DNA of 64,000 bases. Source: an uncultured Thermoleophilaceae bacterium. GTDB lineage: Bacteria; Actinomycetota; Thermoleophilia; Solirubrobacterales; Thermoleophilaceae. The translations under genes were made by a program, and so were the position numbers. Of this stretch, positions 1 through 29,441 are shown in pieces. Each line of letters begins with the position of its first letter. Positions within the stretch are counted from its first letter, which is position 1. Under the pieces are notes generated by a model that saw only the letters and a program-made list of their open reading frames with translations, was not told where the DNA came from and made no database searches. The stretch spans positions 5,405 to 69,404 of the forward strand of contig CAVSJF010000025.1 in NCBI GenBank assembly GCA_963728155.1, given 5' to 3'.

Positions 1-482
1 GTTCGGCGCTCGGCCCATTCGTCTTGCGTGCGCTGAAGGTTCCGGCCGCCGCGCCCGAAGGTGTCGGCGACCGCGGCAGGGACCTCATCCGCGCCGAACG
101 GCCGGTCCAACCACTGCGTGAGCCTCACATGGTTGATGCCGACGGCCTCGGCGGCAGGCGAATCGTCGTAGCGCCAGCCGCCGGTGATGCGCCCGAGGTG
201 GAACATCCCGTCGGTGGTGCGCGTCCAGACGAACGAGGCGACCGGTAGGTCTGCGAAACGCCGCAGCATCCTTCCGGCCTTCTCGCCGTGTTGCGCGACG
301 GCCGCCCTGACCGCGTCGTCGAACGTGGCCGGCGGGGCGGGCAGGGCGTCGCCGATGCCGACGACCCCATGCTGGAGACCGAACTCGGCGCCCGCCCCGG
401 CCGGGACGTCGTCCCGATCGCGGGCGCGCATTGGTGCCCGGTAAATCGGCGGCATCGCGACTACAGACTTCTCCGTTGGCAT
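1..482 (-). CDS. hypothetical protein; its 3' end runs off the left edge of the window
   Basis: Absent from the ORF track because there is no stop in the window. ATG at 482-480 lies 8 nt downstream of GGAGGGAGG. My translation MPTEKSVVAMPPIYRAPMRARDRDD...FVWTRTTDGMFHLGRITGGWRYDDSPAAEAVGINHVRLTQW stays open to base 1 and has GC-rich third codon positions. Confidence 0.6.
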   Translation of the reverse strand, partial: MPTEKSVVAMPPIYRAPMRARDRDDVPAGAGAEFGLQHGVVGIGDALPAPPATFDDAVRAAVAQHGEKAGRMLRRFADLPVASFVWTRTTDGMFHLGRITGGWRYDDSPAAEAVGINHVRLTQWLDRPFGADEVPAAVADTFGRGGRNLQRTQDEWAERR

Positions 483-546
483 CCCCGTGCCTCCCTCCAG
501 CGAGGTGCTTGCGAAATAAACCGCGCACGGACGCGTCTATATCAGT

Positions 547-1977: not shown

Positions 1978-2011
1978 AGAACCGCTCCAGCCTGCCGATA
2001 CCTGAGAGCGG

Positions 2012-3471: not shown

Positions 3472-3472
3472 G

Positions 3473-5068
3473 ATGAAGCGCACCGACACCGATGGGATCA
3501 CTCGTGGCGACCTGCTGAAGGCCGCCGGCGCTGCCGCGCCGGGTCTCCTGCTGGGCGGCCGCGCTGTCGGTGCCGCCGCGCGACCGCGACGCGCGTCGCG
3601 CCCCCGCCAGGTCGCGGGCATGAACGTGCTGATCTTCATGACCGACCAGCAGCGCGCGATCCAGCACTTCCCGCGCGGTTGGGCCAAGCGCAACATGCCC
3701 GGCCTGACTCGCCTGCAGCGCCACGGCCTGAGCTTCGAGAACGCGTTCACGAACGCGTGCATGTGCTCGCCGGCGCGGTCTACCTTCATGTCCGGCTACT
3801 TCCCTGCCCAGCACGGCGTGAAGTACACGCTCGAGACCGACATGCCCGCCCCGCAGTACCCGCAGGTCGAGCTCGCCACCACGTTCAAGAACCCGGCCAG
3901 CGTGGTGGCGGCCGCCGGCTACACACCGGTCTACAAGGGCAAGTTCCACTGCAACAAGCCGGCGAACGGCTCCACCTGGGTCCCTTCCGACGTGAACCAA
4001 TACGGCTTCACCCGCTGGGATCCGCCGGACGCGGGCGCCAACCAGGACGTCTCGGAGGAGGGCGGCGGGGTCTACGACAACGACGGCCGCTTCATGAACT
4101 CCCAGGGGACGCCGGAGGACGGCAACGAGGGGGCGGTCCAATACCTGAGCTCGACCGCCGCGCAGAGCCAGCCCTTCTTCATGGTCGTGTCGCTGGTCAA
4201 CCCGCACGACGTGCTCTTCTACCCGAAGACCTACGCCAGCGGGGGCTATGACAAGTCCTGGCTGCAGGGTGAGATCGAGGTGCCGGCGACGGCGAACGAG
4301 GACCTCTCGACCAAGCCGAGCGTGCAGGCGCAGTTCCTGAAGCTCTTCAACGCGTCCGGGCCGATCCCGACCAAGCAGATGAAGCGCAACTACCTCAACT
4401 TCTACGGCAACCTCATGAAGGCCTCGGACGCCTATCTGGTGAAGATCATTCAGACGCTCGCGAGGTCCGGCCTGCTCGACAACACGCTCGTGATAGCCAC
4501 GGCCGACCACGGCGAGATGGGCACCACCCACGGCGGGATGCGCCAGAAGAACTTCAACTTCTACGAGGAGGCGACCCGCGTCCCGTTGGTCTACTCCAAC
4601 CCGCGCCTGTTCAAGAGGCCCCAGCGCAGCAAGGCTCTGGTGTCGCACGTGGACTTCCTGCCGACGCTCGCGAGCCTCGTCGACGCACCCGCCGCCGCCC
4701 GCGACTCCTGGCAGGGCGTCGACTACTCCGACCAGATCCTGAGCCGTTCGCCGAAGAAGCCGCCCCAGGACTACACCGTCTTCACCTACGACGACTGGCA
4801 GTCCGGCCAGTCACGCGGCCCCTACCCCAAGCCGCCCAACCACATCGCGAGCATCCGCGAGGAGCGCTACAAGCTCGCCCGCTACTACGACGCGGATGGC
4901 AACGTGCCCGACCAGTGGGAGATGTACGACCTCAAGACCGACCCGCTCGAGCGCGTGAACCTGGCCTACAAGGGCCACAAGCGCACCGCCGAGCAGCAGC
5001 GCCAGTACGTGCGCCTGCGTCGCAAGCTCGCCCGCGTCGAGCAGACCCGCCTTCAGCCGCTCAGCTGA
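3473..5068 (+). CDS. sulfatase (formylglycine-dependent arylsulfatase family), exported
   Basis: ATG 3473 follows GGAAGGG and lies 1 nt after the preceding stop. The N-terminus MKRTDTDGITRGDLLKAAGAAAPGLLL is signal-like. Motifs seen: sulfatase signature CMCSPARSTFMSGY (C-x-P-x-R) and ATADHGEMG. Confidence 0.9.
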   Translation: MKRTDTDGITRGDLLKAAGAAAPGLLLGGRAVGAAARPRRASRPRQVAGMNVLIFMTDQQRAIQHFPRGWAKRNMPGLTRLQRHGLSFENAFTNACMCSPARSTFMSGYFPAQHGVKYTLETDMPAPQYPQVELATTFKNPASVVAAAGYTPVYKGKFHCNKPANGSTWVPSDVNQYGFTRWDPPDAGANQDVSEEGGGVYDNDGRFMNSQGTPEDGNEGAVQYLSSTAAQSQPFFMVVSLVNPHDVLFYPKTYASGGYDKSWLQGEIEVPATANEDLSTKPSVQAQFLKLFNASGPIPTKQMKRNYLNFYGNLMKASDAYLVKIIQTLARSGLLDNTLVIATADHGEMGTTHGGMRQKNFNFYEEATRVPLVYSNPRLFKRPQRSKALVSHVDFLPTLASLVDAPAAARDSWQGVDYSDQILSRSPKKPPQDYTVFTYDDWQSGQSRGPYPKPPNHIASIREERYKLARYYDADGNVPDQWEMYDLKTDPLERVNLAYKGHKRTAEQQRQYVRLRRKLARVEQTRLQPLS

Positions 5069-5076
5069 GCGAGCGC

Positions 5077-5481
5077 TCAGCCGCCCTGGCTCTCGAGGAT
5101 GAGGAGCTGCCAGGTGTGGGGCCCCACCACTCCATCGACGTCCAGGTGCGCCTGCTTCTGAAAGCGGCGCGTCGCCTTCTCGGTGTCCGCCCCGAACGTG
5201 CCGTCCGCGCTGATGCCGAGCAGATCCTGCACAGCGCGGACGGGTTCACCGCGCTGACCCTTGCGAACCGCGACCACGACCTTGGACCACGTGTCGGTCC
5301 CCACCACGCCGTCGGCGTCGAGCTCGTTGGCGGACTGAAAGGCCTTCACCGCCTTCTCCGTCGCCGGTCCGAACTTGCCGTCGACGGTCACCTCGCTTCC
5401 GCGATGCAGCAGCAGCCGCTGCAAGGCCTTCACGGCCATCCCCTTCGTGTTTCTCTTCACCAGCGGCCAATCAGCGCTCAT
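5077..5481 (-). CDS. peptidoglycan-binding (PG_binding_1) repeat protein
   Basis: Two copies of the motif: VKALQRLLLHRGSEVTVDGKFGPATEKAVKAFQSANELDADGVVG and VRAVQDLLGISADGTFGADTEKATRRFQKQAHLDVDGVVG. Start set at the internal ATG (MSADWPLVK). Confidence 0.8.
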   Translation of the reverse strand: MSADWPLVKRNTKGMAVKALQRLLLHRGSEVTVDGKFGPATEKAVKAFQSANELDADGVVGTDTWSKVVVAVRKGQRGEPVRAVQDLLGISADGTFGADTEKATRRFQKQAHLDVDGVVGPHTWQLLILESQGG

Positions 5482-5534
5482 TGGGTTCCCATCGGTTGTT
5501 GGTGGCTGAGACCCTCGAAGTATGGTTGTCGCGC

Positions 5535-5723
5535 ATGGTTGAGCCGCACACCGACGAGGTACCCCAAGCCGGCCCACAGGGCTGGTGCGTCTGCGGCCAG
5601 AAGGTCACGATCGCCGACCCGCGCGAGCTGACCCTGCCGAACGGCCGGCCCGGCTGGGAGGGCCACTGCCCTGAGTGCGGGTCTCCGCTGTTCGCCATCC
5701 GCCGCAAACCTGCGGGCGGCTGA
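5535..5723 (+). CDS. small zinc-ribbon protein (62 aa)
   Basis: MVEPHTDEVPQAGPQGWCVCGQKVTIADPRELTLPNGRPGWEGHCPECGSPLFAIRRKPAGG contains a CxC...CxxC pattern. Third codon positions are GC-rich. The stop is 17 nt before the next gene start. Confidence 0.6.
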   Translation: MVEPHTDEVPQAGPQGWCVCGQKVTIADPRELTLPNGRPGWEGHCPECGSPLFAIRRKPAGG

Positions 5724-5740
5724 GGCCCGAGCGGGCCGGC

Positions 5741-7138
5741 GTGATCTTCCGGCAGGTGATCCACGACGACCTCGGCTGCGCGTCGTATCTGATCGGTGAC
5801 GAGAGTGCGGGGGTGGCCGCGGTCGTGGACCCGAAGCTCGACATCGACGACTACCTGAGCCTGGCCCGCTATCTCGGGGTGCGGATCGAGCACATCGTCG
5901 AGACCCACAACCACGCCGACCACGTCTCGGGCCACGGGCGTCTCGCGGCGGCCACCGGCGCCACGATCCACATTCACCGCGACGCCGGCCCGGACTACGA
6001 CCACGAGGCCTTCGACGACGGCTGGGAGCTCGAGCTCGGCGACCTGCGGGTGCGGGCGCTGCACACACCCGGCCACCGGCCCGAGCACACCGCACTGCTG
6101 CTGGTGGACGCCGGCCGGGGCGACGACGCTCCGTGGGCGGTGCTCACGGGCGATTCGCTGTTCGTCGGCGACGTCGCCCGCCCGGACCTCGCGATCGACA
6201 AGGAGGAGGGTGCGCGGGGCATCTTCCGCTCGCTGCACGAGAAGCTGCTCTCGCTGCCCGCCGAGGTAGAGGTCTGGCCCGGCCACCTCGGCGGCTCGCT
6301 GTGCGGAGGGCCGGGCATGGACCTGAAGGTTTCGTCGACGATCGGGTTCGAGCTCGCCCACAACCAGGTTCTGCGCATCGCCGAGGAGGACGAGTTCGTC
6401 GCCCAGGCGCTGGCCGGCCTCGGCCCTCAGCCGCCGAACTTCGAGAAGATCGTCGCCGTCAACCGTGGCCCGCTGCGCCGCGAGGGGGTCGAGGCCCACC
6501 CGCTCGCGCCCCGGCAAATCGAGCAGCAGCGCGAGAGCGGCGCCCTCCTGATCGACACTCGCACCGATCTGCAGTTCGACGACGGCCACATCCCCGGCGC
6601 GGTCAGCAACACCATGCTCCGCGCCGGCTTCGGCAGCAAGCTGGCGTGGCTGGCCGAGCCCGACCAAGACGTCGTGCTCATCGGTCGCGACGATGAGGAC
6701 GGCCGTCGCGCCGCCCAGCTCGCCGCGGCGGTGGGGATTACGCGCATCGCCGGCTACCTGAGCGGCGGCATGACCGCGTGGCGGGAGGAAAAGCGCGAGG
6801 TGCAGCGCATCGAGCGCGTGGCCCTGGCCGATTTCCACGAGCGCTGGGGGGCAGGCCGCGACACGATCCAGGTGCTCGATGTACGCGAACGATCCGAGTG
6901 GGACGCAGGGCGCATCCCCGGCTCGATCCACGAGCCCTACCACGACATCAAGGAGCTTCCCGAAGGGATCGACCCCGACCGGCCCATCGGGGTCGTCTGC
7001 GCCTCTGGGCAGCGCGCGGCGGTGGGAGCCAGCCTGGCCCAACGCTACGGGGCGCGCGAGGTGATGCACGTGGTCGACGGCGGCGTGCCGAGGTGGAAAC
7101 GCGAGGGCTGGCCGATCGAGCAGCCTGCGCACACCTAG
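5741..7138 (+). CDS. MBL-fold persulfide-dioxygenase-like domain fused to two rhodanese domains (CstB-like architecture)
   Basis: ETHNHADHVSGH (HxHxDH) at the N-terminus, followed by two rhodanese-like segments. The last has the active-site loop VVCASGQRAA. GTG 5741 was chosen as start (VIFRQVIHDDLGCASYLIGD). Confidence 0.85.
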   Translation: MIFRQVIHDDLGCASYLIGDESAGVAAVVDPKLDIDDYLSLARYLGVRIEHIVETHNHADHVSGHGRLAAATGATIHIHRDAGPDYDHEAFDDGWELELGDLRVRALHTPGHRPEHTALLLVDAGRGDDAPWAVLTGDSLFVGDVARPDLAIDKEEGARGIFRSLHEKLLSLPAEVEVWPGHLGGSLCGGPGMDLKVSSTIGFELAHNQVLRIAEEDEFVAQALAGLGPQPPNFEKIVAVNRGPLRREGVEAHPLAPRQIEQQRESGALLIDTRTDLQFDDGHIPGAVSNTMLRAGFGSKLAWLAEPDQDVVLIGRDDEDGRRAAQLAAAVGITRIAGYLSGGMTAWREEKREVQRIERVALADFHERWGAGRDTIQVLDVRERSEWDAGRIPGSIHEPYHDIKELPEGIDPDRPIGVVCASGQRAAVGASLAQRYGAREVMHVVDGGVPRWKREGWPIEQPAHT

Positions 7139-19428: not shown

Positions 19429-20478
19429 TTACTTTGGTCTCTCTCCCGGCGCCAGTGAATCGGTCAGAACCCTCACCGCTCCCGGAGGCACGTCGAGCCA
19501 GACCCGCTGGCCCACGCGCAGGCCGAGGCGCTCGACCGCATGGGCGGGCTGCTCGCTCCTGATGTCTCCCACCACGACCGTGGTGCGGATGCCCTCGGGG
19601 ACGATTCCCGTGATCTCGCCCTCGGTCCCCCACCTTCCGGCCGCCCCGCCGGGGGTGTGCCCGACGAGCCAGGGAAGCACGGCGAGCTGCACCTGCCCCT
19701 CGGCGCGCTGCTCGATGCGAAGCACCTGCCCGCCGGCGAGGGCGACGGTCGAGCCCCCCGCGGGATCCGGCGAGGCCGCGCCGACGACCACGGTCGCCCC
19801 GATCAACGCCGCCACCAGCGCGTCAGCCGGGCCGGCCACGAGCTCCTGCGCGGTTCCCACCTGAAGGATGCGCCCCCGGGAGATGACCGCGATGCGCTGT
19901 GACAGCGCCGCCGCCTCGCGGAAGTCGTGCGTCACGAGGACGGTGGGCAGGCCCGCGGCGACGAGGGTCTCGCGCAGCTCATGGCGCAGCAGCGACCGGG
20001 TGTGGGGATCGAGCGCCGAGAGCGGCTCGTCGAGCAGCAGCACGTCGGGCTCGCTGGAGAGGGCGCGAGCCAGCGCCACGCGCTGGCGCTCGCCTCCGGA
20101 GATCCGGCCCGGGCGCTCTCCCGCCAGGTGGTCGATGTGCAGGCGCCGCAGCATCTCGTCGGCCTGTCCCGTGCCTCCGAAGGCCACGTTGTCCCGCACC
20201 GTCATGTGCGGGAACAGCGCGTAGTCCTGGAAGACCATGCCCACGGAGCGCTCCTCTGGCGCAAGATCGATGCCCTTAGCCCCGTCGAACCACGGCCGCT
20301 CGCCCACCAGGATCCGGCCCGTATCCGGCCGGTGCAGCCCGGCGATGCAGCGCAGCACCGTGGTCTTGCCGCTGCCCGACGGGCCGACGAGCGCCAGCGT
20401 CTCCCCCTCCACGGCGAGCGACAGGTCTAGGTCGAAGGACCGAAGCCGAGTCTTGATTTCGCTGTGGAGTCCTGCCAT
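19429..20478 (-). CDS. modC: molybdate ABC transporter ATP-binding protein with a C-terminal TOBE-like domain
   Basis: MAGLHSEIKTRLRSFDLDLSLAVEGETLALVGPSGSGKTT, LSGGERQRVALARAL, LLLDEPLSALD. The upstream 245 codons of the 594-aa ORF overlap modB and are Arg/Gly junk. Confidence 0.85.
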   Translation of the reverse strand: MAGLHSEIKTRLRSFDLDLSLAVEGETLALVGPSGSGKTTVLRCIAGLHRPDTGRILVGERPWFDGAKGIDLAPEERSVGMVFQDYALFPHMTVRDNVAFGGTGQADEMLRRLHIDHLAGERPGRISGGERQRVALARALSSEPDVLLLDEPLSALDPHTRSLLRHELRETLVAAGLPTVLVTHDFREAAALSQRIAVISRGRILQVGTAQELVAGPADALVAALIGATVVVGAASPDPAGGSTVALAGGQVLRIEQRAEGQVQLAVLPWLVGHTPGGAAGRWGTEGEITGIVPEGIRTTVVVGDIRSEQPAHAVERLGLRVGQRVWLDVPPGAVRVLTDSLAPGERPK

Positions 20479-21293
20479 CCGGCGACGAGCTTGTAGGCGA
20501 CGAGGATCGCCGCGCTGGTCAGCACCAGCAGGATGCCGATCGCCAGAGCGACGTCGAAATCCGCCTCGAGCTGTTCGTAGACGGCCAGGGTAAGGGTCTG
20601 GGTCTGCCCGAGGACATTCCCGGCGAACACGATCGTCGCACCGAACTCGCCGATCCCACGCGCAAAGGCCAGCACCCAGCCGGCCACGAGCGCGCTGCGG
20701 GCAAGCGGCAGCGCGACCCGCCGGAACGTCCGCCATGGGCCCGCGCCGAGAGTCCGCGCCGCGTCGGTGAGCGACCGATCCACTCCCTCGAAGGCGCTGA
20801 TCGCCTGGCGAACATAGAAGGGCGAGGCCACGAACGTCACGGCCAGCACCACGGCCCACTCCGAGAACGGGAGCACGATCCCGACGGAGGCCAGCTCGCC
20901 CCCCAGAAGGCCTCCGGCCCCGAAGGCGGCGAGCAGGCTGATCCCCGCCACTGCCGGGGGCAGCACGAGGGGCAGCTCGACCAGCGTCACCATCAAAGCT
21001 CGTCCGCGGAAGCGACGCGTGGCCAGCAGGTACGCCGCCGGCGTGCCGACTCCCACGATCAGCAGGTTGGCGACCAGGTTCGTGCGAGCGGTCACCTCGA
21101 GCGCCTCGCGCACCACGGGGCTGGTCAGCAGATCGGGCAGCTCCTCCAGAGGGACCTCGCTGAACAGCGCGATCAGCGGTATCGCCAGGAAACCCAGCGA
21201 CAACCCGAGGCACAGCGAGAAGAGTGCGGTGAAGGCGACCCGCTCGGCGGGCCGCCTTCGGCCGCTAGCTCTTCTTGCGGGGCGGAAGCCCAA
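20427..21293 (-). CDS. modB: molybdate ABC transporter permease
   Basis: EAA-loop context DAARTLGAGPWRTFRRVALPLARSALVAGWVLAFARGIGEFGATIVFAGN. The start may instead be GTG 21239. Confidence 0.85.
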   Translation of the reverse strand: MGFRPARRASGRRRPAERVAFTALFSLCLGLSLGFLAIPLIALFSEVPLEELPDLLTSPVVREALEVTARTNLVANLLIVGVGTPAAYLLATRRFRGRALMVTLVELPLVLPPAVAGISLLAAFGAGGLLGGELASVGIVLPFSEWAVVLAVTFVASPFYVRQAISAFEGVDRSLTDAARTLGAGPWRTFRRVALPLARSALVAGWVLAFARGIGEFGATIVFAGNVLGQTQTLTLAVYEQLEADFDVALAIGILLVLTSAAILVAYKLVAGWQDSTAKSRLGFGPST

Positions 21294-22008
21294 AGCCGAA
21301 CTGCTTTAGAACGCGGCGCCCGGTGGTGCTCACCACGCGCTTGATGAAGGCATCGGCGGCGGTGCGGTCCACCCCGTCCCGCCGGACGATGCAGATCTGG
21401 TAGCGCACCGGCGGCTGGGCGTACTTCGGCAGCCTGATCGTCTTGACGCGATCGCTCACGACCCGACCGTCGGTGACGTACGCGAAGCCGGCGTCGGCCG
21501 AGCCCAGGGCGACCTTGGAGGTGATGCTCGACACGTTCGGCTCGGTCGAGACGGTGTTGAGGGTGAGCACACGGCTCAGCCCCAGCCGGCGCAGGAGCCT
21601 GCGCGTGTAGGAGCCGATCGGAACGCCGGCCGACCCGATCGCCAGTCGCTTGGCCGGACCGCGCACGAGGTCGTAGACCGAGTCGATGTTCGCCGGATTG
21701 CTGCGCGGGACTAGGAGCACGACCACGTTCGTGGCGAAGGTCACCGGTCGCTCGCAGCGGTTCGCGGCAAAGAGCGCCTGGGCCTCCTCGGGAGCAGCCG
21801 AGGCGAACACGTCGGCCGGGGCGCCCCGCTCGATCTGAAGCTGCAGCTGGTTGGACCCGGCGAAGCTGTAGGTCTGGTTGGCGTCGAGGGCAGGGAACGC
21901 CTCACGCAGCGAAGCGGCGGCGAAGACGTTCGCGGCGTGGGCGCTGGCGGGCACGGCCAGCGCAGCCGTGACGGCTACCGCGAACAGGAGTATGCGAAGG
22001 CGTTTCAC
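21265..22008 (-). CDS. modA: molybdate ABC transporter substrate-binding protein
   Basis: Signal peptide MKRLRILLFAVAVTAALAVPASAHA. VFAAASLREAFPAL, ADVFASAA, GSADAGFAYVTD. Confidence 0.9.
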   Translation of the reverse strand: MKRLRILLFAVAVTAALAVPASAHAANVFAAASLREAFPALDANQTYSFAGSNQLQLQIERGAPADVFASAAPEEAQALFAANRCERPVTFATNVVVLLVPRSNPANIDSVYDLVRGPAKRLAIGSAGVPIGSYTRRLLRRLGLSRVLTLNTVSTEPNVSSITSKVALGSADAGFAYVTDGRVVSDRVKTIRLPKYAQPPVRYQICIVRRDGVDRTAADAFIKRVVSTTGRRVLKQFGFGLPPRKKS

Positions 22009-22029
22009 GGTTGGATTTCCTCCGGGTGG

Positions 22030-22644
22030 TTACTCGTCAGGGATGTCGGGCGCGGCGGGGACGCGCAGGAAGCTGTCGATCGTGGCTCCGGCGCGTTCGG
22101 AGCTGATCCCGCTCGGCAGCGGCGTGATCGCCGAAGCGCCGCGCAGGACCGCGATCTCGGAGAGGTGCTGCGCGTCTCGGCCCAGCGACCTGGCGAGCAC
22201 CAGGCGAGTACCCGGGTCGAGCGCGTCCTGGGCGCCGGCGGTGTAGACCCCCACGCTCAACCGCTCGAGCCGGCGCGCGAGCGCCAGCACCGCCGCCTTG
22301 GAGCGAAGCGACTTCCGGGGGATTTCGACCTCGAACTCACCCGACCCCGGCGCCTCGGCTCCCAGCGCCCTGGTCAGCTGGCGCTCTTGGCGGTAGTCGG
22401 CCTGACGCACGGCCCTCAGGATGCGCCTCTGCGCGCGGGTCCAGCCGTCCTGCGCCAGCGCGCTCGAGTAGAGCTCGAGCGTGATTCGCTCGCTCATCAC
22501 TCCGAGGAACAGGAAGTTGTAGTCGTCCTCGAACGGCGCCGGCGCGGGCGGCGCCGCCGCCGTGGCCAGCGACGAGGAGGCCAGGACCCCGGCCAGCACT
22601 AGAATCGCGAGCCAGCGTCCGGATCGTTCCCCAACAGCGCCCAC
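22030..22644 (-). CDS. secreted ferritin-like domain protein
   Basis: Signal peptide, then DDYNFLFLGVMSERITLELYSSALAQ...LERLSVGVYTAGAQ...RDAQHLSEIAVLRG. Confidence 0.6.
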   Translation of the reverse strand: MGAVGERSGRWLAILVLAGVLASSSLATAAAPPAPAPFEDDYNFLFLGVMSERITLELYSSALAQDGWTRAQRRILRAVRQADYRQERQLTRALGAEAPGSGEFEVEIPRKSLRSKAAVLALARRLERLSVGVYTAGAQDALDPGTRLVLARSLGRDAQHLSEIAVLRGASAITPLPSGISSERAGATIDSFLRVPAAPDIPDE

Positions 22645-22693
22645 GCATCCTCTCCTTCTGGCCAGTAGTCAGCGGGTGACTACTTTGTCGTAT

Positions 22694-23158
22694 ATGTTGC
22701 GCGCCTGTCAAGTCGATCGAGCCCTCACCGTCGTCGCCGTGCTCGGTGTGAGCGCGTCGCTGTGCCTGACGGCCTGCTCATCCGAGACCGAGGCGCCGGC
22801 CGCGCCCAAGAGGCTCGTTGCCGACCCCCCGCTGGCGACGGAGCGGCCGGCTGAAGGGGAGTTCGTCTTTCGCGGCGCGTACGCGCCGCGGTCGCACAAG
22901 CCGGCCGACCTGCGCGGCCGCTACCTCGTCCGCTTCCAGCAATGGGCCCCGGAGGATCCGAAGCGAGACTTCGAGGCTGAGACGGCTTTCGTGGCCTCGC
23001 TCGTCGGCACATCCGGCTCCGACAGGGGCAGGCGCGTCCGGCTGTTCCGAACCGCGGCGGCGCGGGGCGAGCGCCGGGTCGACCTCTCCGGCCGCTACCT
23101 CCTCGAAGTCGCGTTCGGCGACTTTCCCTATGTGGTCCGGTTCACTCCGCGCGGTTAG
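22694..23158 (+). CDS. lipoprotein, function unknown
   Basis: ATG 22694. MLRACQVDRALTVVAVLGVSASLCLTACSSETEAP contains the lipobox LTAC. Confidence 0.65.
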   Translation: MLRACQVDRALTVVAVLGVSASLCLTACSSETEAPAAPKRLVADPPLATERPAEGEFVFRGAYAPRSHKPADLRGRYLVRFQQWAPEDPKRDFEAETAFVASLVGTSGSDRGRRVRLFRTAAARGERRVDLSGRYLLEVAFGDFPYVVRFTPRG

Positions 23159-24326
23159 GCGCCCGGCGGCCGTGGTGATCGCGGCCACGCTCGGCCTGGG
23201 CCTGCTTGCGGGCAGCGCCCAAGCGGCTTCTGGCGTGACGGTGAGCCTGCCGGGTGGCGCGGGCGAGCGGTTCGTCGCGGCCCGGGACATAGCGGCGGCG
23301 GCCGACGTTCCGGTGACCGAATATGTCCTGCGATCGGCGGGTGGGCAGGAGGAATCGGTGTTCCAGACGGGCACGCGTCTCGCCAGCGTCCTGGCTCTGG
23401 CCGGGGTCGACCCGGCCGCGGTCTCGTTTCTCGAGCTCACTAGGCCGGACGGCAGCTCCTTGGCCCTTCCACGCGACGCGATCGATCCTCCGGTGGGACT
23501 CGCTCCGCTCGTCTGGGTCGACAAGGGCGTGGTCGGCTTCATACGTCCCAGCGCCGGGCCAGGCGACGCCAACGAACGCGACTCGTTCAGCATCTCCGGA
23601 GGAGCGGCGCTGAACGTGGTGGCCCGCACCGGGGCCCAGCTCACGGTGTCCGCCGAGGGAGGCCGCCGGCGCGTGCGCGCGGGCGGTGCGGTGGTGTTCT
23701 CCGGCGAGGCGACGGGGGCGGCCCCAGGCGAGCAGCTCACCTACGAGTGGCGTTTTGGCGACGGGACGACCGCCGCCGGCACGCGGGTGCGCCACGTGTT
23801 CGACGAGGCCGGCGGCTTCGACGTGGTCCTGCGGGTGACCGGGGACGGAGACTCGGGCGGAACCTCTGACCCGGTGTCCGTCCAGGTGGGAGAGCCGAGC
23901 GAGCGGGAACGGGGCGAGGGCGACGGCGACTCCACCGAGCCGGGGGCTCCGGAGAGCGGCCCGCAGACGGGCGAGAGCCCAAGCGGCGCGGCGCCCGCCC
24001 CGCCCCCGGCGGCAGTACCCGCACCGGTCGCGCCGCTGCCCACGCCGAGTCCTCCGCTTGCTCCATCGGCTCCTCCCCCCACGAGCCCTCCGGCGCCGCG
24101 GCCCGAGCCGAGCGACGGCGAGAACTCAGCGCCAAGCGGAGTGGTCACCGGCCTGCGCATCGCTCCCGGCGGGCAGGCCCGGCCCGCTCAGCTCACCGGC
24201 TCCCTCCCCGCCGCGCGGGCCGGGGGCGAGGCCCCGAAGCGCAGTGCGGCCACCGTCCCGACCGGCCTGATCGCGGCGGTGGTGCTCCTGGCATTGGGCG
24301 TGTGGCGCGAGGGAAGGAGGGCGTAG
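23130..24326 (+). CDS. secreted PKD-domain protein with a Pro-rich stalk and a C-terminal membrane anchor
   Basis: ATG 23130 gives MWSGSLRAVRRPAAVVIAATLGLGLLAGSAQA. PKD-like segment LTYEWRFGDGTTAAGTRVRHVFDEAGGFDVVLRVTGDGDSGGTSDPVSVQVG. Pro-rich APAPPPAAVPAPVAPLPTPSPPLAPSAPPPTSPPAPRP. C-terminus VPTGLIAAVVLLALGVWREGRRA. Confidence 0.8.
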   Translation: MWSGSLRAVRRPAAVVIAATLGLGLLAGSAQAASGVTVSLPGGAGERFVAARDIAAAADVPVTEYVLRSAGGQEESVFQTGTRLASVLALAGVDPAAVSFLELTRPDGSSLALPRDAIDPPVGLAPLVWVDKGVVGFIRPSAGPGDANERDSFSISGGAALNVVARTGAQLTVSAEGGRRRVRAGGAVVFSGEATGAAPGEQLTYEWRFGDGTTAAGTRVRHVFDEAGGFDVVLRVTGDGDSGGTSDPVSVQVGEPSERERGEGDGDSTEPGAPESGPQTGESPSGAAPAPPPAAVPAPVAPLPTPSPPLAPSAPPPTSPPAPRPEPSDGENSAPSGVVTGLRIAPGGQARPAQLTGSLPAARAGGEAPKRSAATVPTGLIAAVVLLALGVWREGRRA

Positions 24327-24327
24327 C

Positions 24328-24948
24328 GTGGAGGACGCGGCGATTGCCATCGCCGAGGCGCTTCGCTACCCGGTGCTCGCCCTGGGGCTGGCCGCCCTCG
24401 CGGTGGCGATCTTTCAGGTCGGCGAGCTGTCGGTGGAGCTCTGGCGCCGGCGCCGGCGGCGCGGGTCGCCGACCCTCTTCGTCAGGAGCGCCGAAGCCCA
24501 GGCCCTCCTGGCCAAGGGCCAGCGCGAGCAGGCCAAGCGGGTGCTCGCCGACTCGTCTCCGAGCGGGTCGATGACGGCGGTGCTCGACTTCATGGTCGCC
24601 GAGCACGGCCAACCCGGAGCCGACGACCGCATCGCCAAGTCGCTCGCCGATTTCGACCTGCACGCGCTACGCCGGCTCGAGCGCAGCCGCATCCTGGTCC
24701 GCGCCGGGCCGGGCCTCGGGCTGATGGGAACGCTGATTCCGCTGTCGCCCGCGCTCAGCGCTCTCGGACGCGGCGATCTCGAACAGCTCTCGGACGCGCT
24801 CCAGGTGGCCTTCGGGATCACGGTGATCGGCATCCTCATCGGCCTGCTGGCCTTCGGCGTGTCCCTGGTCCGCGAGCGGCTGTACGCCCAGGACCATTCG
24901 GATCTCGAGTACGCCGCCGCCGCGCTCAGCCCGGAGGGAGCATCGTGA
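24328..24948 (+). CDS. MotA/TolQ/ExbB-family proton-channel protein (short, 206 aa)
   Basis: GTG 24328 lies 1 nt after the upstream stop, preceded by GGGAAGGAGGG. ILVRAGPGLGLMGTLIPLSPALSAL...LQVAFGITVIGILIGLLAFGVSLVRERL. Confidence 0.75.
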   Translation: MEDAAIAIAEALRYPVLALGLAALAVAIFQVGELSVELWRRRRRRGSPTLFVRSAEAQALLAKGQREQAKRVLADSSPSGSMTAVLDFMVAEHGQPGADDRIAKSLADFDLHALRRLERSRILVRAGPGLGLMGTLIPLSPALSALGRGDLEQLSDALQVAFGITVIGILIGLLAFGVSLVRERLYAQDHSDLEYAAAALSPEGAS

Positions 24949-25271
24949 GCCGGCGAGTGAGCCCGCGAGTCTCCAGCCGGGTGCGGCTCACCGGTGACCG
25001 CGCGGGCGACCCGCTGGACGGCCTCGTGAACCTCTTCGACCTGGGCATCGTCCTGGCGATCGCCTTCTTGTTGGTCGCGGTGACCGGCCTCGAGATCTCT
25101 CAACGAACCGGCCAGGAGGAGGGCAGTGACCTGATCAAGCTGCGCCCCCGCGAGCAGGCCCGGCCCCTGAACGACCCAGGCGAGCGCGTGGCCGGTCGGG
25201 GTGAGCGGGTGGGCACCGTCTACCGCCTGCGCAACGGCGAGCTGATCTACGTGACGGGACCGAGAGACTGA
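24945..25271 (+). CDS. DUF2149-like single-TM protein (candidate stator partner of the MotA-like protein)
   Basis: GTGA overlap with the upstream gene. DPLDGLVNLFDLGIVLAIAFLLVAV...GERVGTVYRLRNGELIYVTG. The family assignment is from memory of PF09919-type sequences. Confidence 0.6.
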   Translation: MSRRVSPRVSSRVRLTGDRAGDPLDGLVNLFDLGIVLAIAFLLVAVTGLEISQRTGQEEGSDLIKLRPREQARPLNDPGERVAGRGERVGTVYRLRNGELIYVTGPRD

Positions 25272-25275
25272 CGCC

Positions 25276-25824
25276 CTGCGCGCAGGCGAAGCCGACACCG
25301 ATTCGCTCACCCTCAGTGAATGGGCGGTTCTCGGGATAGTCACCGAGGGCTCCACACACGGATTTGCCGCTGCCAAGCTCCTAGCGCCCGACGGCGAGCT
25401 CGGCCAGGTATGGACCGTCCGGCGTTCGCTCGTGTACCGCTCGCTCGAGCGCCTGAAGGCCCTCGGCCTGGTGACGGAGATCGGCGCGGAGAGCGGGCGA
25501 AGTGGGCCCGCCCGCACCCGGGTTGGCTGCACCGATGGCGGAGCGCAGGCATTCTCGGAGTGGCTGGCCACACCGGTCGAGCACGTGAGGGATCTCCGGC
25601 ACATGTTGATTCTCAAGCTGGCCTTTCTGGCCCGGCGGGGTGACAGCGCACAGTCCCTGCTCGAGTCGCAGGCGCGCGAGCTCGAGCCGATCGCCGAGGG
25701 CCTCGCCGGCGCCCACAGCGCCGCCACCGGGCTCGAGCGGCTGGTGCTCGACTGGCGCGTGGAAAACGCGAACGCGGCGCGGCGCTTCGTCCAGCGCCTG
25801 CTCGACGCAGTTAGGGTTCCCTAA
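25276..25824 (+). CDS. PadR-family transcriptional regulator; start codon unresolved
   Basis: The winged-helix part LTLSEWAVLGIVTEGSTHGFAAAKLLAPDGELGQVWTVRRSLVYRSLERLKALGLVTE begins upstream of the first GTG (25432). The frame opens at 25255 and the only in-frame candidate start is CTG 25276. Confidence 0.7.
   Translation: MRAGEADTDSLTLSEWAVLGIVTEGSTHGFAAAKLLAPDGELGQVWTVRRSLVYRSLERLKALGLVTEIGAESGRSGPARTRVGCTDGGAQAFSEWLATPVEHVRDLRHMLILKLAFLARRGDSAQSLLESQARELEPIAEGLAGAHSAATGLERLVLDWRVENANAARRFVQRLLDAVRVP
25811..25824. promoter_or_regulatory. operator-like palindrome TTAGGGttCCCTAA, overlapping the PadR stop codon
   Basis: Perfect 6+6 inverted repeat with a 2-nt spacer (7+7 if the flanking G/C are included). 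Confidence 0.5.
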
Positions 25825-25866
25825 CACCTAGCGCCGAAGTCTGATATCACTCGCGCCGGCAGGTTG

Positions 25867-25880
25867 TTAGGGCACCCTAA
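25867..25880. promoter_or_regulatory. operator-like palindrome TTAGGGcaCCCTAA, 18 nt upstream of GTG 25898
   Basis: Second copy of the same 6+6 palindrome, 56 bp centre-to-centre from the first, in a locally AT-richer spacer. Confidence 0.5.
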
Positions 25881-25897
25881 TACTGGAGCGACGCGCT

Positions 25898-26554
25898 GTG
25901 GACAACCGAGATCCAGGGCCGGTTTCGACGGAGGGCTTCGAGCGGCTGGCGACGGCGGGCAACCCACCCCGAGGCGAATTGCTGTCGGTGCTCGGCGCAA
26001 CCGTCGACGGCCGGCCGATACCCGGCACCGTCGACTTCGCTCTCGACGATCTCAGCCGGCGACTATTCGACGCGTCGGCCGCGCCTGCTCATGAAGCGGC
26101 AGCTCGGCTCGGCGCCCTGCTGTCCGAGGACCCCTGCTTCGCGGTAGATCACCGCGATCCGCGGACGCTGATGCTCGACCAGGTGTTGGCGCGGCGGGTC
26201 GGACATCCACTGATGCTTGCCGTCGCGATGGCGGAGGCAGGCCGGCGGGCCGGGATGCGCACCGGCGTGTTCTCCTCCCCTCACGCCTGGTACGCCGGCG
26301 TCAGCGACGCGGACGGCCTGTGGATCGTCGAGACCCGCGACGACCGCGACCTCCCCCACCCCGAGCAGCTGCGCCGCCACTGTGCGCACGAACTTGCCTG
26401 GGCCGCGCTGCTCGGCTTGGAGCGAAGCCACGGTTCGCTCGGCGACAAGCGGCGCGCGAACCGCGCGCGCCGGCTGCGCGAGATGCTGCCCACCCAACAG
26501 GCAGAGGCCGGCGCGGGTGACCCGCTCGAGGTGCTGTGGGCGGACGGCGCCTGA
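25898..26554 (+). CDS. transglutaminase-like / SirB1-N-like family protein
   Basis: LMLDQVLARRVGHPLMLAVAMAEAGRRAGMRTGVFSSPHAWYAGV. Confidence 0.55.
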   Translation: MDNRDPGPVSTEGFERLATAGNPPRGELLSVLGATVDGRPIPGTVDFALDDLSRRLFDASAAPAHEAAARLGALLSEDPCFAVDHRDPRTLMLDQVLARRVGHPLMLAVAMAEAGRRAGMRTGVFSSPHAWYAGVSDADGLWIVETRDDRDLPHPEQLRRHCAHELAWAALLGLERSHGSLGDKRRANRARRLREMLPTQQAEAGAGDPLEVLWADGA

Positions 26555-26615
26555 GCGCACCGGCCGGTCGTCGAGGTGAGCACCAGCTACACAGGCTGCG
26601 CACAGGTCGGCCAGC

Positions 26616-27425
26616 TCAGCTATGGCCCGCCCGAGTTCGCCGCGCGCCTCCCGGCCGCCCGACGCCGAGCTGAGCGCCCATGCGGGATTCCGGAAGCAAG
26701 TGGACGCCGCGGGCCGCCCATCGCGCGCGCCGGTTGCCGCCCGGTGGCCATGCCTCCTCGCCGCCGGCGCCGCCCGGCTCGGCGCGGTTGAGCACCACCA
26801 GCGGAGCGTGGCCGAGCCGCGCCAGGCAACTCGACCCCACCTCGGCCAGGGCAGGCTCGACGGCGGGCGTGGCCACGAGCAGAACACGGTCGGCCACCGC
26901 GGCAACGCTGCCGCCGAGCGCCGCCGAGCCGGCGTCGATCACGAGCGGCGCCAGCTCGCGGGTGGCGTGGCCCACCGCCGTCACCTCCCCGCCGGCGATC
27001 AGACAGAGCCGGCCGACCGCCCGCGGGTCGGCACCGGGGAGCCCCGACAGGCACTTCGCCAGCCGGCCGGCCGCCGGGGTGGCGAGCGGTATTCCCGCCG
27101 CGCGGGCGTCGCAGTGGACCGCCGCCGCGCCGTCGCTGTCGCGCCGGGCCAGCTCGGCGGCGAGCGCCCGTGCCACGACCGTGACTCCACACCGCTTGGC
27201 CAGCCCGAACACCGCGACCACCGGCCGGGGCCGCGCCGGGGCCAATCCGGGCGACTGCGGCGCGGGCGCGGCGGGCTCGACCAGCCAGGCACCGGCGGCC
27301 CCGACGGCCCCGGCCAGCAGGCCCGCCGCGCGTCCGCCGCGGCCACCGGTGAGCACGTGGAGCTCCGGCCGAGCATCCTCCGCCTCGGACTCGGCCTGCC
27401 GTCGCGGTGACGCCGCACCGCTCAC
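26616..27425 (-). CDS. ParA/MinD-fold protein of the CpaE/TadZ/Ssd type, with no canonical P-loop; C-terminus probably frame-broken
   Basis: GTGA overlap with the upstream TadE-like gene. PVVAVFGLAKRCGVTVVARALAAELA...LVIDAGSA...RVLLVATPAVEPALAEV...APLVVLNRA. After ...PESRMGAQL the protein-like sequence (GGREARGELGRAIAELADLCA) continues in the next frame. Confidence 0.5.
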   Translation of the reverse strand: MSGAASPRRQAESEAEDARPELHVLTGGRGGRAAGLLAGAVGAAGAWLVEPAAPAPQSPGLAPARPRPVVAVFGLAKRCGVTVVARALAAELARRDSDGAAAVHCDARAAGIPLATPAAGRLAKCLSGLPGADPRAVGRLCLIAGGEVTAVGHATRELAPLVIDAGSAALGGSVAAVADRVLLVATPAVEPALAEVGSSCLARLGHAPLVVLNRAEPGGAGGEEAWPPGGNRRARWAARGVHLLPESRMGAQLGVGRPGGARRTRAGHS

Positions 27426-27780
27426 GGGGCCTCCACCGCGGCGTGCGCGTCGACCTCGAGCTTCTCGGAGACCGAGCGCAACGGCGAGGGAGGCCTGAGG
27501 TGGACCTCAACCCGGCCGCCCGAGACCGCGATACGCGTCCGCGTCCGCGACCAGCCGGGAAGGGCCTCCTTCGCGCCCGCGCGAGCGTCGGCGCCGGCGG
27601 CCAGGGCGAGGGCGCCCGGCCTCGGCCGCCGCTCCAGCCAGCACGGAGGCGTAGCCCACGGCCAGCAGCTGGAAGAAGCACAAGGCCGACGAGCGCGATC
27701 GCCGGCAACAAGTCCGACGAGCTCCACGGCGGCCTGCCCCGACTCGCGCCGGGCCGCCGTGCGACCGTGCGCGGGCTCAC
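27422..27780 (-). pseudogene. TadE-like pilus-assembly protein; reading frame broken at least three times
   Basis: A sensible sequence ESGQAAVELVGL|LPAIALVGLVL|(L)QLLAVGYASVLAGAAAEAG|ALALAAGADARAGAKEALPGWSRTRTRIAVSGGRVEVHL is obtained only by skipping one base at about 27712, 27672 and 27617. The start is either GTG 27780 (GTGA overlap, but a different frame from the TadE motif) or GTG 27853. Confidence 0.55.
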
Positions 27781-28134
27781 TTCTCGCGCCCCATCGACGA
27801 CGTGGCCTCGACCCGTACCGGCGCGCGCCAGCGCCGCAGCAGCAGCGGCACACGCACCGAGACCCTGACTCCGCCCTCCCGCAGGCGCCCCACCTCGAGA
27901 TCCCGCTCCATCGAGCCCGGGAGGCTGCGGCGCGCGGCGGTGGCGACGTCGCGACCCACGGTGTCCGCCCGCGCCGCCGCCCGCGCGGCCTGTGCGGTGA
28001 GCCAGGCGGTGTGGCCCGCCAGCGCGAGCTGCCACACGACGGCGCCGATCAACAACACGAACGGCACCACCGCCACGAGCTCGACTGACGCCTGCCCGCG
28101 CTGGGATCGTTTGTCGGCGGCGGGGTGAGCTCAT
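27777..28134 (-). pseudogene. TadE-like pilus-assembly protein; one frame break at the aaa run 28110-28112
   Basis: ATG 28134 gives MSSPRRRQ. The next frame gives RSQRGQASVELVAVVPFVLLIGAVVWQLALAGHTAWLTAQAARAAARA... The TadE frame has no start codon of its own between the upstream in-frame stop and the GQASVE motif. Confidence 0.65.
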
Positions 28135-28616: not shown

Positions 28617-29441
28617 CTACTCGATCGTGCCCGAGCTCACCAGCACCAACACCAGGATGCCCAGCGCCACGCGGTAGACCACGAACACCACGGTGGTGTG
28701 GGTGACGAGGAAGCGGAGCAGGAAGGCGATCGCCGCGTATCCGGCGACGAAGGCCAGGAAGGTGGCGATGATCAGCGCGCCCGTCCCGACGTTCTCGCCC
28801 TCCTCCCCACTCGCGATGGAGCCCAGCTCGAGTAGCCCGCTCAGCACCACCGCGGGTATCGACAGCAGGAAGGAGAAGCGCGCAGCGGACTCACGGTCGA
28901 GGCCGAGGAACAGCCCCGCGGTGATCGTCGCGCCAGAGCGGGAGACGCCGGGAACGAGCGCCAGCGCCTGAGCGAAGCCCAGCGCCACGCCATCACGCGC
29001 GGTGATCTGCTCGACCGAGCGGTCGCGCTTGCCCACCTTCTCGGCCACCAGCAGCACCAAGCCGAGGACGATCAGGGTGGTGCCGATCAGGTAGAGGTCG
29101 CGGGCGCCGGTCTCGATCTGATCCTTGAAGATGAGACCGAAGACCCCGATGGGAATCGTGCCCAGGAGGATGTACCAGCCCAGGCGGGCGTCGAGCTCGC
29201 GCCGGGCGGCCGGGTCGCGCAGGGAGCGCGTCCAGGCCTTGGCGATCCGCCACAGGTCCGCCCGGAAATAGAGCAGGACGGCGGCCATCGTCCCCAGCTG
29301 GGTGACCGCGGTGAAGGCCGCGCCGGGATCCTCCCAGCCCGCGAACGCGGGAATGATGCGCAGGTGCGCAGTGCTCGAGATCGGCAGGAACTCGGTGATC
29401 CCCTGCACGATCCCGAGGACGATTGCCTCGAAAACCGACAC
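28617..29441 (-). CDS. uppP: undecaprenyl-diphosphate phosphatase
   Basis: VLGIVQGITEFLPISSTAHL, ALALVPGVSRSGATITAGL; 274 aa. Confidence 0.95.
   Translation of the reverse strand: MSVFEAIVLGIVQGITEFLPISSTAHLRIIPAFAGWEDPGAAFTAVTQLGTMAAVLLYFRADLWRIAKAWTRSLRDPAARRELDARLGWYILLGTIPIGVFGLIFKDQIETGARDLYLIGTTLIVLGLVLLVAEKVGKRDRSVEQITARDGVALGFAQALALVPGVSRSGATITAGLFLGLDRESAARFSFLLSIPAVVLSGLLELGSIASGEEGENVGTGALIIATFLAFVAGYAAIAFLLRFLVTHTTVVFVVYRVALGILVLVLVSSGTIE

Follow-up and report, generated by a model that had tools for sequence, protein, structure and literature searches.

The stretch of DNA considered here, hereafter the window, comprises 64,000 nucleotides from an uncultured Thermoleophilaceae bacterium (assembly GCA_963728155.1, contig CAVSJF010000025.1, positions 5,405 to 69,404 of the forward strand), and carries at positions 22694-25824 five tightly packed open reading frames (ORFs) on the plus strand, which encode a lipoprotein, a surface protein with a PKD domain (PKDp), a MotA-like channel protein, a DUF2149 protein, and a PadR-like regulator. 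Three of these genes, those for PKDp, the MotA-like protein and the DUF2149 protein, recur together beside ATP-binding cassette (ABC) importers of metal nutrients in related genomes, and the module that they form has about an even chance of being a Ton/Tol-like, proton-driven energiser that helps ABC importers to bring scarce metals through a monoderm envelope. Energisers of the ExbB/TolQ/MotA type, which are powered by the proton motive force, are textbook parts of diderm envelopes and of flagella.

The conserved core and its neighbouring importers

The five ORFs are all present as the original prediction had described them, and the peptides that it quoted, the LTAC lipobox, the signal peptide, the Pro-rich stalk and the C-terminal anchor can all be seen in the translations. 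The genes are joined by a 29-nt overlap between those for the lipoprotein and PKDp (23130-23158), a 1-nt gap between those for PKDp and the MotA-like protein, a 4-nt overlap (GTGA) between those for the MotA-like and DUF2149 proteins, and a 4-nt gap after which the PadR frame resumes at 25276; the G+C content at their third codon positions, 0.81-0.90 in a window of approximately 70% GC, indicates that all five are coding. The same five-gene order is found in two related loci, L001 (whose DUF2149 protein is 95% identical) and L002 (76% identical), and this recurrence shows that the gene string is no product of chance. The notion of a compact conserved unit is borne out, in that the block is kept in both relatives and a putative PadR-linked operator precedes its first gene; the full block is confined to this narrow lineage, while the core is distributed more widely.

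A scan for DUF2149 in one genome per species gave 439 confirmed relatives, of which the best 80 loci were taken. These belong mostly to metagenome-assembled genomes (MAGs) of Solirubrobacterales, together with Nocardioides MAGs, the Microbacteriaceae isolates Galbitalea sp. SE-J8 and Frondihabitans sp. PhB188, and Patulibacter americanus DSM 16676. With the window and a few duplicates included, 89 loci were classified by means of dedicated hidden Markov models (HMMs) built from the first loci. The MotA-like gene adjoins the DUF2149 gene in 87 of these, and in 79 a homologue of PKDp is encoded no further than 8 kb from DUF2149; judged from gene neighbourhood, the conserved core is PKDp-MotA-like-DUF2149. 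As for transporters, Tup-like importers neighbour the module in 65 loci, a Tup-like importer plus ModA in 1, heme-type importers in 6 and Mod-type importers in 3 (the window, L001 and L002, which constitute the window lineage), and none was recognised by the dedicated HMMs in 14. Metal-nutrient ABC importer clusters contain or flank the module, in other words, in approximately 75 of the 89 loci.

In the Tup-type loci (approximately 66), the order is that of a TupA-like substrate-binding protein (SBP), PKDp, the MotA-like protein, the DUF2149 protein, one or more TupB-like permeases and an ATPase. The SBP is a large PBP_like_2 protein, and the genes that complete the importer encode one or two BPD_transp_1 permeases, an ABC ATPase and sometimes a TOBE protein; 32 of the 89 loci also have, no more than 8 kb away, a regulator with a MerR-type helix-turn-helix and a Mop/TOBE domain. 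Three operons (L027, L041 and L078) are rearranged with their gene set unchanged. The best specific NCBIfam matches of these loci were to TupA (52-73 bits, cutoff 400) and TupB (138 bits, cutoff 320), followed by ModB, and since all of these fall far below the equivalog cutoffs, the systems are named here Tup-like importers of molybdate/tungstate-type (Mo/W-type) oxyanions. At least 44 of the 47 distinct TupA-like SBPs have a Sec signal cleaved between ALASA and DTSSTLTVVGTSDV (that is, between ALASA and D), at a site without a lipobox, and the proteins end in an Ig-like C-terminal tail of approximately 350 aa. Untethered binding proteins are unusual in monoderms, and the apparent lack of a tether on the TupA-like SBPs suggests a need for a surface receptor. 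TupA-like proteins (L003-L084; for example L004, 2775-4862) measured 534-695 aa in three loci, their C-terminal run consisting of Ig-like or carboxypeptidase-regulatory-like domains, and their genes are usually accompanied by one for a small putative lipoprotein ('up169') and by the MerR+Mop/TOBE regulator.

The heme-type loci show the order Peripla_BP_2-FecCD-ATPase, usually followed by a 676-aa HtaA protein and then by PKDp-MotA-DUF2149, and in L081 and L072 gene sets homologous to HtaA/heme uptake directly precede the module. In L073, the locus of Patulibacter americanus DSM 16676, a complete anchored-repeat metal ABC transporter lies directly upstream of PKDp-MotA-DUF2149 (62-6986; TIGR03772 755 bits, TIGR03771 360 bits, and several TIGR03773/choice-of-anchor-M surface proteins); this locus was counted among the 14 without a transporter until it was scanned with curated models. 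That the module is found with four classes of transporter, in several bacterial families and in rearranged operons points to its repeated recruitment.

The 14 loci in which the dedicated HMMs recognised no transporter nearby could also be taken in favour of a quite unlikely alternative, namely that the module is a motor for envelope maintenance, secretion or motility, of the Tol, Gld or Agl type, and that its adjacency to transporters is incidental or a matter of co-regulation. The MotA-like protein does belong to a non-flagellar 'generic ion transporter' group that includes Tol and Agl proteins (PMC12505986), and adhesins and S-layer proteins often contain PKD and Ig domains. Such a role would leave unexplained, however, why the module lies between the SBP and permease genes of a single operon in the approximately 66 Tup-type loci and why it recurs with four importer classes in several families; in addition, it is not accompanied by conserved genes for division, pilus motors, gliding or secretion, and the Tad-like genes found downstream in the window are not present in L002. 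The insertion of the same triad in the operons of chemically unrelated importers is a pattern that no rival explains as well as a Ton/Tol-like energiser of uptake.

The three core proteins and related systems

The MotA-like protein (24328-24948, plus strand; 206 aa) is an ExbB/TolQ-like channel subunit of the MotA family with three predicted transmembrane (TM) helices, and it matches PF01618 (MotA_ExbB) with 30.4 bits, against a gathering score of 22.9. The HMM searches proposed in the original prediction thus returned significant hits, above threshold for PF01618 as well as for PF09919, the family of the DUF2149 protein, and matches to PKD. Against sequences of the Protein Data Bank (PDB), the single MotA-like sequence yielded spurious PsaK matches only, and a 53-sequence profile was required to reach MotA (8gqy, E 5.7e-4), ExbB (5sv0, E 1.3e-3) and TolQ (9avi, E 0.016); the alignment with ExbB 5sv0 is almost full length (profile positions 12-184), and an ExbB/TolQ-type layout fits. 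T135 is invariant and T165 near-invariant, and the two are aligned with the TM2 and TM3 threonines of the ExbB motifs GLFGT and LATA, which we take to be Thr148 and Thr181. The subfamily is small, with 1003 representatives at E <= 1e-3 among 1.84 billion, and MotA-DUF2149 fusions are present among them. Some members, as noted for the distant representatives P0331 and P0354, carry N-terminal extracytoplasmic extensions of 400-450 aa with Ig-like/LEA_2 or PsbP-like domains.

The DUF2149 protein (24945-25271, plus strand; 108 aa; PF09919, 49.5 bits against a gathering score of 27.1), a putative motor axle, has 3533 detectable relatives in a large protein collection. It consists of an Arg-rich N-terminus, a single N-in TM helix that contains Asp32 (NLFDLGIV) and a small beta C-terminal domain; in the AF2 model (pLDDT 72), residues 23-56 form one long helix, accompanied by three short strands. 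Thirty-one diverse actinobacterial sequences show no variation in the block D22-L37 (DPLDGLVNLFDLGIVL), of which Asp32 is part. It was on account of this Asp that the protein had been proposed as the stator plug, and the single N-in helix and the invariance of the residue in the 31 homologues agree with the proposal; homology to ExbD, TolR or MotB does not accompany it. Such homology was considered and rejected, as neither a sequence nor a fold match emerged from profile or Foldseek searches, and comparison of the protein with Pfam and NCBIfam gave no ExbD or MotB family match. Since no match to DUF2149 was found in the PDB, the likeness to ExbD and TolR is limited to topology and the membrane Asp, an analogy that makes an ExbD/TolR-like axle plausible.

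The conserved Thr/Asp constellation would suit an ion pathway as well, and it has to be asked whether the MotA-like/DUF2149 pair is a membrane channel or transporter (for a metal ion, heme or iron) or a device that sets local ion conditions, PKDp being a mere binder and no mechanical work being done. Motor genes do occur in the company of no PKDp gene in L016, L055, L071, L075 and L086. Nevertheless, this explanation is an unlikely one: the linked operons already have complete ABC importers, with SBP, permease and ATPase, and all characterised members of the MotA/ExbB/TolQ superfamily are energy transducers and not solute carriers (PMC9389320, PMC12505986). Moreover, the same motor is found with oxyanion, heme and divalent metal cargos, and one motor serving chemically unrelated cargos argues against a substrate-specific channel.

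PKDp (23130-24326, plus strand; 398 aa; Pfam PKD_4 57.2 bits, PKD 39.6 bits) is a stalked surface protein, in which a signal peptide recognised in the translation (23130-23225) is followed by a conserved N-terminal domain (23229-23639), a PKD/Ig domain (approximately 23655-23885), a Pro-rich stalk of approximately 115 aa that is also rich in Ala and Ser (approximately 23913-24257), and a C-terminal TM anchor with an LG-x-W-R-E motif (24258-24323). The ATG at 23130 is the correct start, given that MWSGS and the basic signal peptide that it introduces are kept in homologues 66-70% identical. The cytoplasmic end of the anchor, LLL(G/A)LG-x-(R/W)-E-L-R, is conserved in all locus classes. A sortase-type signal at the C-terminus was considered and rejected, VPTG being present only in the window lineage and no LPXTG or LAXTG being conserved, and the conserved TM/tail motif was preferred; comparison of PKDp with Pfam revealed PKD domains only, with no TonB or TolA C-terminal domain.

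The AF2 model of the PKDp ectodomain has a pLDDT of 93.1, and the Foldseek search that employed it placed chicken sulfite oxidase first (E 2.7e-7, prob 1.0), interleaved with PKD domains of collagenases; the superposition on sulfite oxidase is poor (TMq 0.40, rmsd 15). These model comparisons provide a lead, and a lead only, that the N-terminal part may be a small domain reminiscent of the core that binds the molybdenum cofactor (Moco), followed by an Ig domain, an arrangement known from the sulfite oxidase family. By eye, the N-terminal domain shares the pattern TG-x-L-x-x-LL-x-AG with the Moco domain, but lacks the ligand Cys. A profile of 36 PKDp N-terminal domains found nothing among PDB sequences, the 36 domains hit no consistent Pfam family at E <= 10, and the assignment of a SUOX/Moco domain at the sequence level was dropped because it had no profile support in either database. 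The presence of a sulfite-oxidase-like top match beside molybdate genes is intriguing and unproven.

Whereas the motor proteins (MotA-like and DUF2149) are approximately 50% identical to those of the window in every locus class, the PKDp ectodomain is class-specific, that of the window scoring a median of 116 bits against heme-type ectodomains, 105 bits against the Patulibacter one and a median of 45 bits against those of the Tup type. This pattern suggests that specificity would reside in PKDp and not in the motor proteins.

The original prediction could not assign the combination of genes to any described system, a view that is not sustained, both in light of the importer clusters described above and due to the fact that the MotA-like/DUF2149 pair is, by family, that of HmuU and HmuV. 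The heme-uptake operon hmuYRSTUV of Porphyromonas gingivalis ends with hmuU, of the MotA/TolQ/ExbB family, and hmuV, which encodes a DUF2149 protein (PMC11681262, PMC10434189), and the arrangement is shared by Prevotella and Bacteroides, with an induction by iron limitation of up to approximately 100-fold or more (PMC11681262, PMC10434189). The equation of the window's family pair with HmuU/HmuV (PG1555/PG1556; BT_0491-0492) is one of annotation (PMC11681262) and not of direct sequence comparison; the likeness also takes in a place within a heme operon that encodes a surface binding protein and is induced on iron or heme limitation (PMC10434189, PMC11681262). HmuU and HmuV have been drawn as powering the outer-membrane receptor (PMC12583661) and, elsewhere, as taking part in inner-membrane transport (PMC12094164). 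The Hmu system differs in that it is diderm and works with the TonB-dependent receptor HmuR, the CobN-like dechelatase HmuS and HmuT, instead of which the window module is associated with the PKD/stalk/anchor protein and ABC importers. No HmuY, HmuR or HmuS is found among the Pfam-annotated neighbours in L001 and L002, and as no window ORF that passes the coding filter is longer than 711 aa, no gene of the size of CobN (CobN/HmuS-like) is apparent.

The pair had also been described as a set of uncharacterised neighbours, mainly in methanogens. The link to methanogens stands, DUF2149 (COG4744) having been catalogued in these archaea as a conserved protein of the membrane with a connection to TolQ (PMC9425974), but HmuU/HmuV, which belong to the same family pair, had been overlooked. 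The archaeal COG4744/arCOG03208 system resembles the present one as an uncharacterised pair of DUF2149 and TolQ/MotA-like genes (PMC9425974), and differs from it in lineage and envelope; neither a PKD/stalk protein nor embedding in an ABC operon has been reported for archaea.

With ExbB-ExbD-TonB and TolQ-TolR-TolA, the module shares a plan of three parts: beside a channel protein of the ExbB/TolQ type stand a small partner that has one TM helix and a membrane Asp, and a further protein whose single TM anchor is separated by a Pro-rich spacer from a globular domain at its far end. The threonines of TM2 and TM3 are also conserved, and Ton likewise serves nutrient uptake. The differences lie in DUF2149, which is not detectably related to ExbD or TolR and whose outer domain is a tiny beta unit, and in PKDp, whose anchor is C-terminal and follows a cleaved signal peptide, and which has neither the SHLS motif nor the C-terminal domain of TonB. 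The module also differs from Ton in having, presumably, no outer membrane and no TonB-dependent transporter to work with, its partners being ABC importers. The absence of the usual stator partners noted in the original prediction is confirmed insofar as the 8 kb on either side in L001, the Pfam-annotated syntenic relative, contain no gene for ExbD, TonB, MotB or an OmpA-like protein and no flagellar gene; the adjacency of modABC and the importer context had been missed. The Corynebacterium-type HtaA-HmuTUV systems and the anchored-repeat ABC transporters (TIGR03771-03773) are, as is proposed for the partners of the module, actinobacterial importers of metal nutrients with large surface binding or relay proteins. 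To our knowledge, these systems as described have no MotA-like, DUF2149 or PKD genes, and are thought to pass their cargo passively from protein to protein. Searches of the literature found nothing that links MotA/ExbB-DUF2149 to Tup, Mod, HtaA or anchored-repeat transporters, and no description of the PKD/stalk protein.

One further relative of these motors is ZorAB, a remote relation of MotAB/ExbBD (PMC12505986), and the module could on this account be imagined as a Zorya-type anti-phage defence in which a MotA/MotB-like anchor senses perturbation of the envelope. This is extremely unlikely, as the five proteins gave no match to PADLOC models at E <= 0.01, nuclease or helicase effector genes are lacking, and the context is one of nutrient transport.

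If the module is a Ton/Tol-like energiser, the ExbB-like MotA-family protein would be an ion-conducting wheel and DUF2149 the axle that supplies the transmembrane Asp, as an analogue and not a detectable homologue of ExbD/TolR, with the two possibly assembled in a 5:2 ratio. PKDp, anchored at its C-terminus, would span the wall on its Pro-rich stalk and expose a partner-specific ectodomain, acting as a force-transducing or receptor arm, that is, as an analogue of TonB/TolA with inverted topology. Proton flow through the MotA-like/DUF2149 complex would do work on PKDp, PKDp would serve as a docking site for secreted binding proteins or for relay proteins of the surface, and the work performed would drive either the hand-off of cargo or the release of the emptied binder, the preferred task being to capture secreted, untethered binding proteins at the cell surface and to unload or release them. 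The analogy employed here is that of diderms, in which TonB-family energy drives hemophore-receptor cycles. The module would in this manner be an accessory to binding-protein-dependent (ABC) metal import and not a stand-alone device.

A number of points weigh against such an energiser. The monoderm status of these organisms is a presumption, and everything about function is argued by association. The best 80 of 439 relatives represent a phylogenetically narrow sample, and the locus counts are therefore not independent events; 14 of the 89 loci have no adjacent transporter by the dedicated HMMs (L073 being reassigned later), and in L089, a Thermoleophilaceae MAG, the triad stands alone. The matches of the MotA-like protein to solved motors are weak (E about 1e-3), the AF2 model of DUF2149 is only moderate, and for this protein the profile gave 0 matches to PDB sequences at E <= 10 and the Foldseek search nothing below E 1. 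The ectodomain of the window is nearer to those of the heme-type and Patulibacter loci than to those of the Tup type, which leaves adjacency as the sole argument for a molybdate cargo. Finally, HmuU and HmuV are themselves uncharacterised (PMC12094164).

The molybdate locus, the lipoprotein and probable PadR control

In the window, the module adjoins modABC (19429-22008, minus strand), which comprises genes for a modC-like ABC ATPase (19429-20478), a modB-like ABC permease of 288 aa (20427-21293) and the molybdate-binding protein ModA, of 247 aa (21265-22008; TIGR01256 106.5 bits, cutoff 62.5; SBP_bac_11 128.6 bits). The identification relies on the ModA equivalog match in the window and on the permease and ATPase families in syntenic L001, in which the modB orthologue matches PF00528 (BPD_transp_1) and the modC counterpart, of 343 aa, PF00005 (ABC_tran). 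The modC-like gene of the window is matched by a dedicated ATPase HMM, and its start is approximate, the longest ORF reaching 21213 but overlapping modB. ModA carries a Sec-type signal peptide without a lipobox. The first gene of this divergent mod operon encodes a secreted ferritin-like protein (22030-22644, minus strand; PF13668 Ferritin_2, 24.9 bits against a gathering score of 24.7), and is kept beside modA in L001, L002, L087 and L088. In the window, L001 and L002, modC-modB-modA-ferritin-like lie on one strand and lipoprotein-PKD-MotA-DUF2149-PadR on the other.

The gene that opens the five-gene string (22694-23158, plus strand) encodes a small lipoprotein of 154 aa with the lipobox LTAC, a member of an unnamed actinobacterial family. 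The family has 160 homologues, none with a Pfam family, and is characterised by the lipobox and by the conserved core GRYLVRF-Q-APED...FGDFPY-VRFTPR. Two of the homologues, P0173 and P0155, lie on long contigs, where they are divergent from ferritin-like-modA-modB-modC and are followed by no PKD, MotA or DUF2149 genes. Within the first 87 sequences (the window and L001-L086) the lipoprotein HMM matched in the window, L001 and L002 only, and it had zero matches in the 80 loci of the DUF2149 genome scan. Two candidate roles, that of a module component, which the original prediction had assumed, and that of a TupA-like fragment, were rejected on these grounds, the HMM matching the window lineage only and the other homologues occurring with modABC alone. 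From its genomic associations, the lipoprotein belongs with the mod locus, from which it has been recruited to head the unit, and is no part of the motor. The occurrence of the family with modABC and without the motor genes marks the five-gene string as a composite, in which, as gene order indicates, the mobile PKDp-MotA-DUF2149 core and PadR are joined, through the 29-nt overlap, behind a gene of the molybdate locus. The module is here translationally coupled behind the mod-associated lipoprotein gene and divergent from ferritin-like-modABC, and its partner would most simply be ModA/ModBC, to which the lipoprotein and the ferritin-like protein may be added.

As an observation in its own right, the ferritin-like-headed modABC operon is divergent from a gene of the 140-180-aa lipoprotein family (core GRYLVRF...FGDFPYVVRFTPR) in all five of five loci (the window, L001, L002, L087 and L088), and the ferritin-like protein and lipoprotein appear as uncharacterised companions of molybdate uptake.

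These results bear directly on the possibility that the string is a self-contained, five-gene proton-motor operon that includes the lipoprotein, has no functional partners and is unrelated to described systems. The tight coupling of the five genes, the conservation of the block in L001 and L002 and the single putative PadR operator that precedes it would all be expected of such an operon. The lipoprotein family, however, goes with ferritin-like-modABC and is found without the motor; the block occurs only in a narrow lineage, while the PKDp-MotA-DUF2149 core is widespread at importer clusters; and the pair is HmuU/HmuV by family (PMC11681262). The explanation is thus largely refuted, and decidedly improbable.

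The last gene of the string (25276-25824, plus strand) encodes a PadR-like regulator of 182 aa when read from a CTG start. Its PadR match, of 26.3 bits, lies 0.7 under the gathering score of 27 (AphA_like 23.8 bits), and its orthologue in L002 is recorded as PF03551. The frame has no ATG, GTG or TTG from the upstream stop (25252-25254) to 25432, the winged-helix DNA-binding part (LTLSEWAVLGIVTEGSTHGF...) is encoded before 25432, and the sole candidate start is the CTG at 25276, which is conserved with its open frame in L001 and L002. The regulator is described as PadR-like, with the qualifications that its score is below threshold and that the start given in the original prediction is non-canonical. 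Automatic gene callers shorten the protein (to 116 aa in L001).

A perfect inverted repeat, AGTAGTCA-N5-TGACTACT, lies at 22664-22684 in the 49-bp gap between the divergent start codons and is a putative PadR operator. Its TAGTCA-N5-TGACTA core is retained in L001 and L002 with a differing spacer, and in L003 two copies (2417 and 2997) flank the PadR gene, which is itself upstream of a Tup-like operon. When one mismatch is allowed, the 1.65 Mb of related loci contain 23 copies of TAGTC(A/C)-N5-TGACTA where shuffling predicts 0.6 (an enrichment of approximately 40-fold), and 22 of these copies adjoin a PadR homologue; the motif is absent from L087 and L088, the two lipoprotein-mod loci examined that have neither PadR nor the module. 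There is, therefore, good comparative evidence for TAGTCA-N5-TGACTA as the putative operator. Its enrichment and its linkage to PadR support the existence of one regulated unit that runs from the lipoprotein gene through PadR, and PadR, encoded last, probably represses the entire string through this element. The palindrome also offers a ready prediction for this PadR subfamily. A search for sigma-70-type promoters and intrinsic terminators at 22000-26600 found none, being uninformative for an actinobacterium of 70% GC, and an Rfam scan of the window at gathering thresholds detected no Moco riboswitch and no other known RNA.

PadR homologues and the operator accompany the module in 19 of the 89 loci, and the tail of PKDp has a conserved charged cytoplasmic motif; both features could be accommodated by a trans-envelope signalling device, similar to TonB-dependent FecA/FecR signalling, in which ligand sensing by the surface protein would be passed on by the motor so as to control PadR and with it the expression of the transporter. 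Such a device is very improbable, given that PadR is not nearby in 70 of the 89 loci, where the regulator is instead of the MerR+TOBE type, which can sense molybdate directly, and that PadR has no detectable membrane or partner-binding domain.

Downstream genes and the meaning of the module

Downstream of the string, the region 26000-28100 has an unusually high GC content (0.769) and almost all of its frames are open. Its minus-strand genes (approximately 99-280 aa) have the look of Tad/Flp-pilus minor pilins, judged from their N-termini, and have no Pfam matches in syntenic L001; they are followed by a gene for an undecaprenyl-diphosphatase (BacA) at 28617-29441.

According to a 2022 review, whether and how Ton-like proteins work in thick-walled Gram-positive bacteria without ExbD is still to be tested (PMC9389320). 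The module described here gives this question a concrete system, with three genes, a candidate substitute for ExbD and a candidate TonB-like arm with swappable ectodomains. Its cargo systems are identifiable (Mo/W, heme, and Zn/Mn-type ABC importers), and culturable carriers exist in Frondihabitans, Galbitalea and Patulibacter. The PadR-linked operator and the class-specific ectodomains provide handles for genetics and for the annotation of genes whose present labels are 'PKD domain protein', 'ExbB/TolQ' or 'hypothetical'.

A bolder proposal, to be held tentatively and with some doubt, is that monoderm actinobacteria possess a true counterpart of Ton, in which a proton-driven 5:2-type motor, with the ExbB-like protein as wheel and DUF2149 as axle, pulls or rotates the wall-spanning, C-terminally anchored PKDp, thereby catches, unloads or expels secreted binding proteins of high affinity, and so energises ABC metal uptake. 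If this were true, the motor would act on TupA-like, ModA, HtaA and anchored-repeat proteins, with molybdate/tungstate, heme and other metals as cargos; the presence of HmuU/HmuV in Bacteroidota and of TolQ-DUF2149 in methanogens would be explained; and the whole would represent an ancient, envelope-independent class of metal-acquisition energiser. The module also offers a hypothesis for the unexplained HmuU/HmuV proteins in a heme operon of medically relevant Bacteroidota. Read as a Ton/Tol-like motor of the HmuUV type, it has a substantial chance of being conceptually new if its coupling to ABC import is real, and it suggests that ABC import in monoderms may not always be energised by ATP alone.

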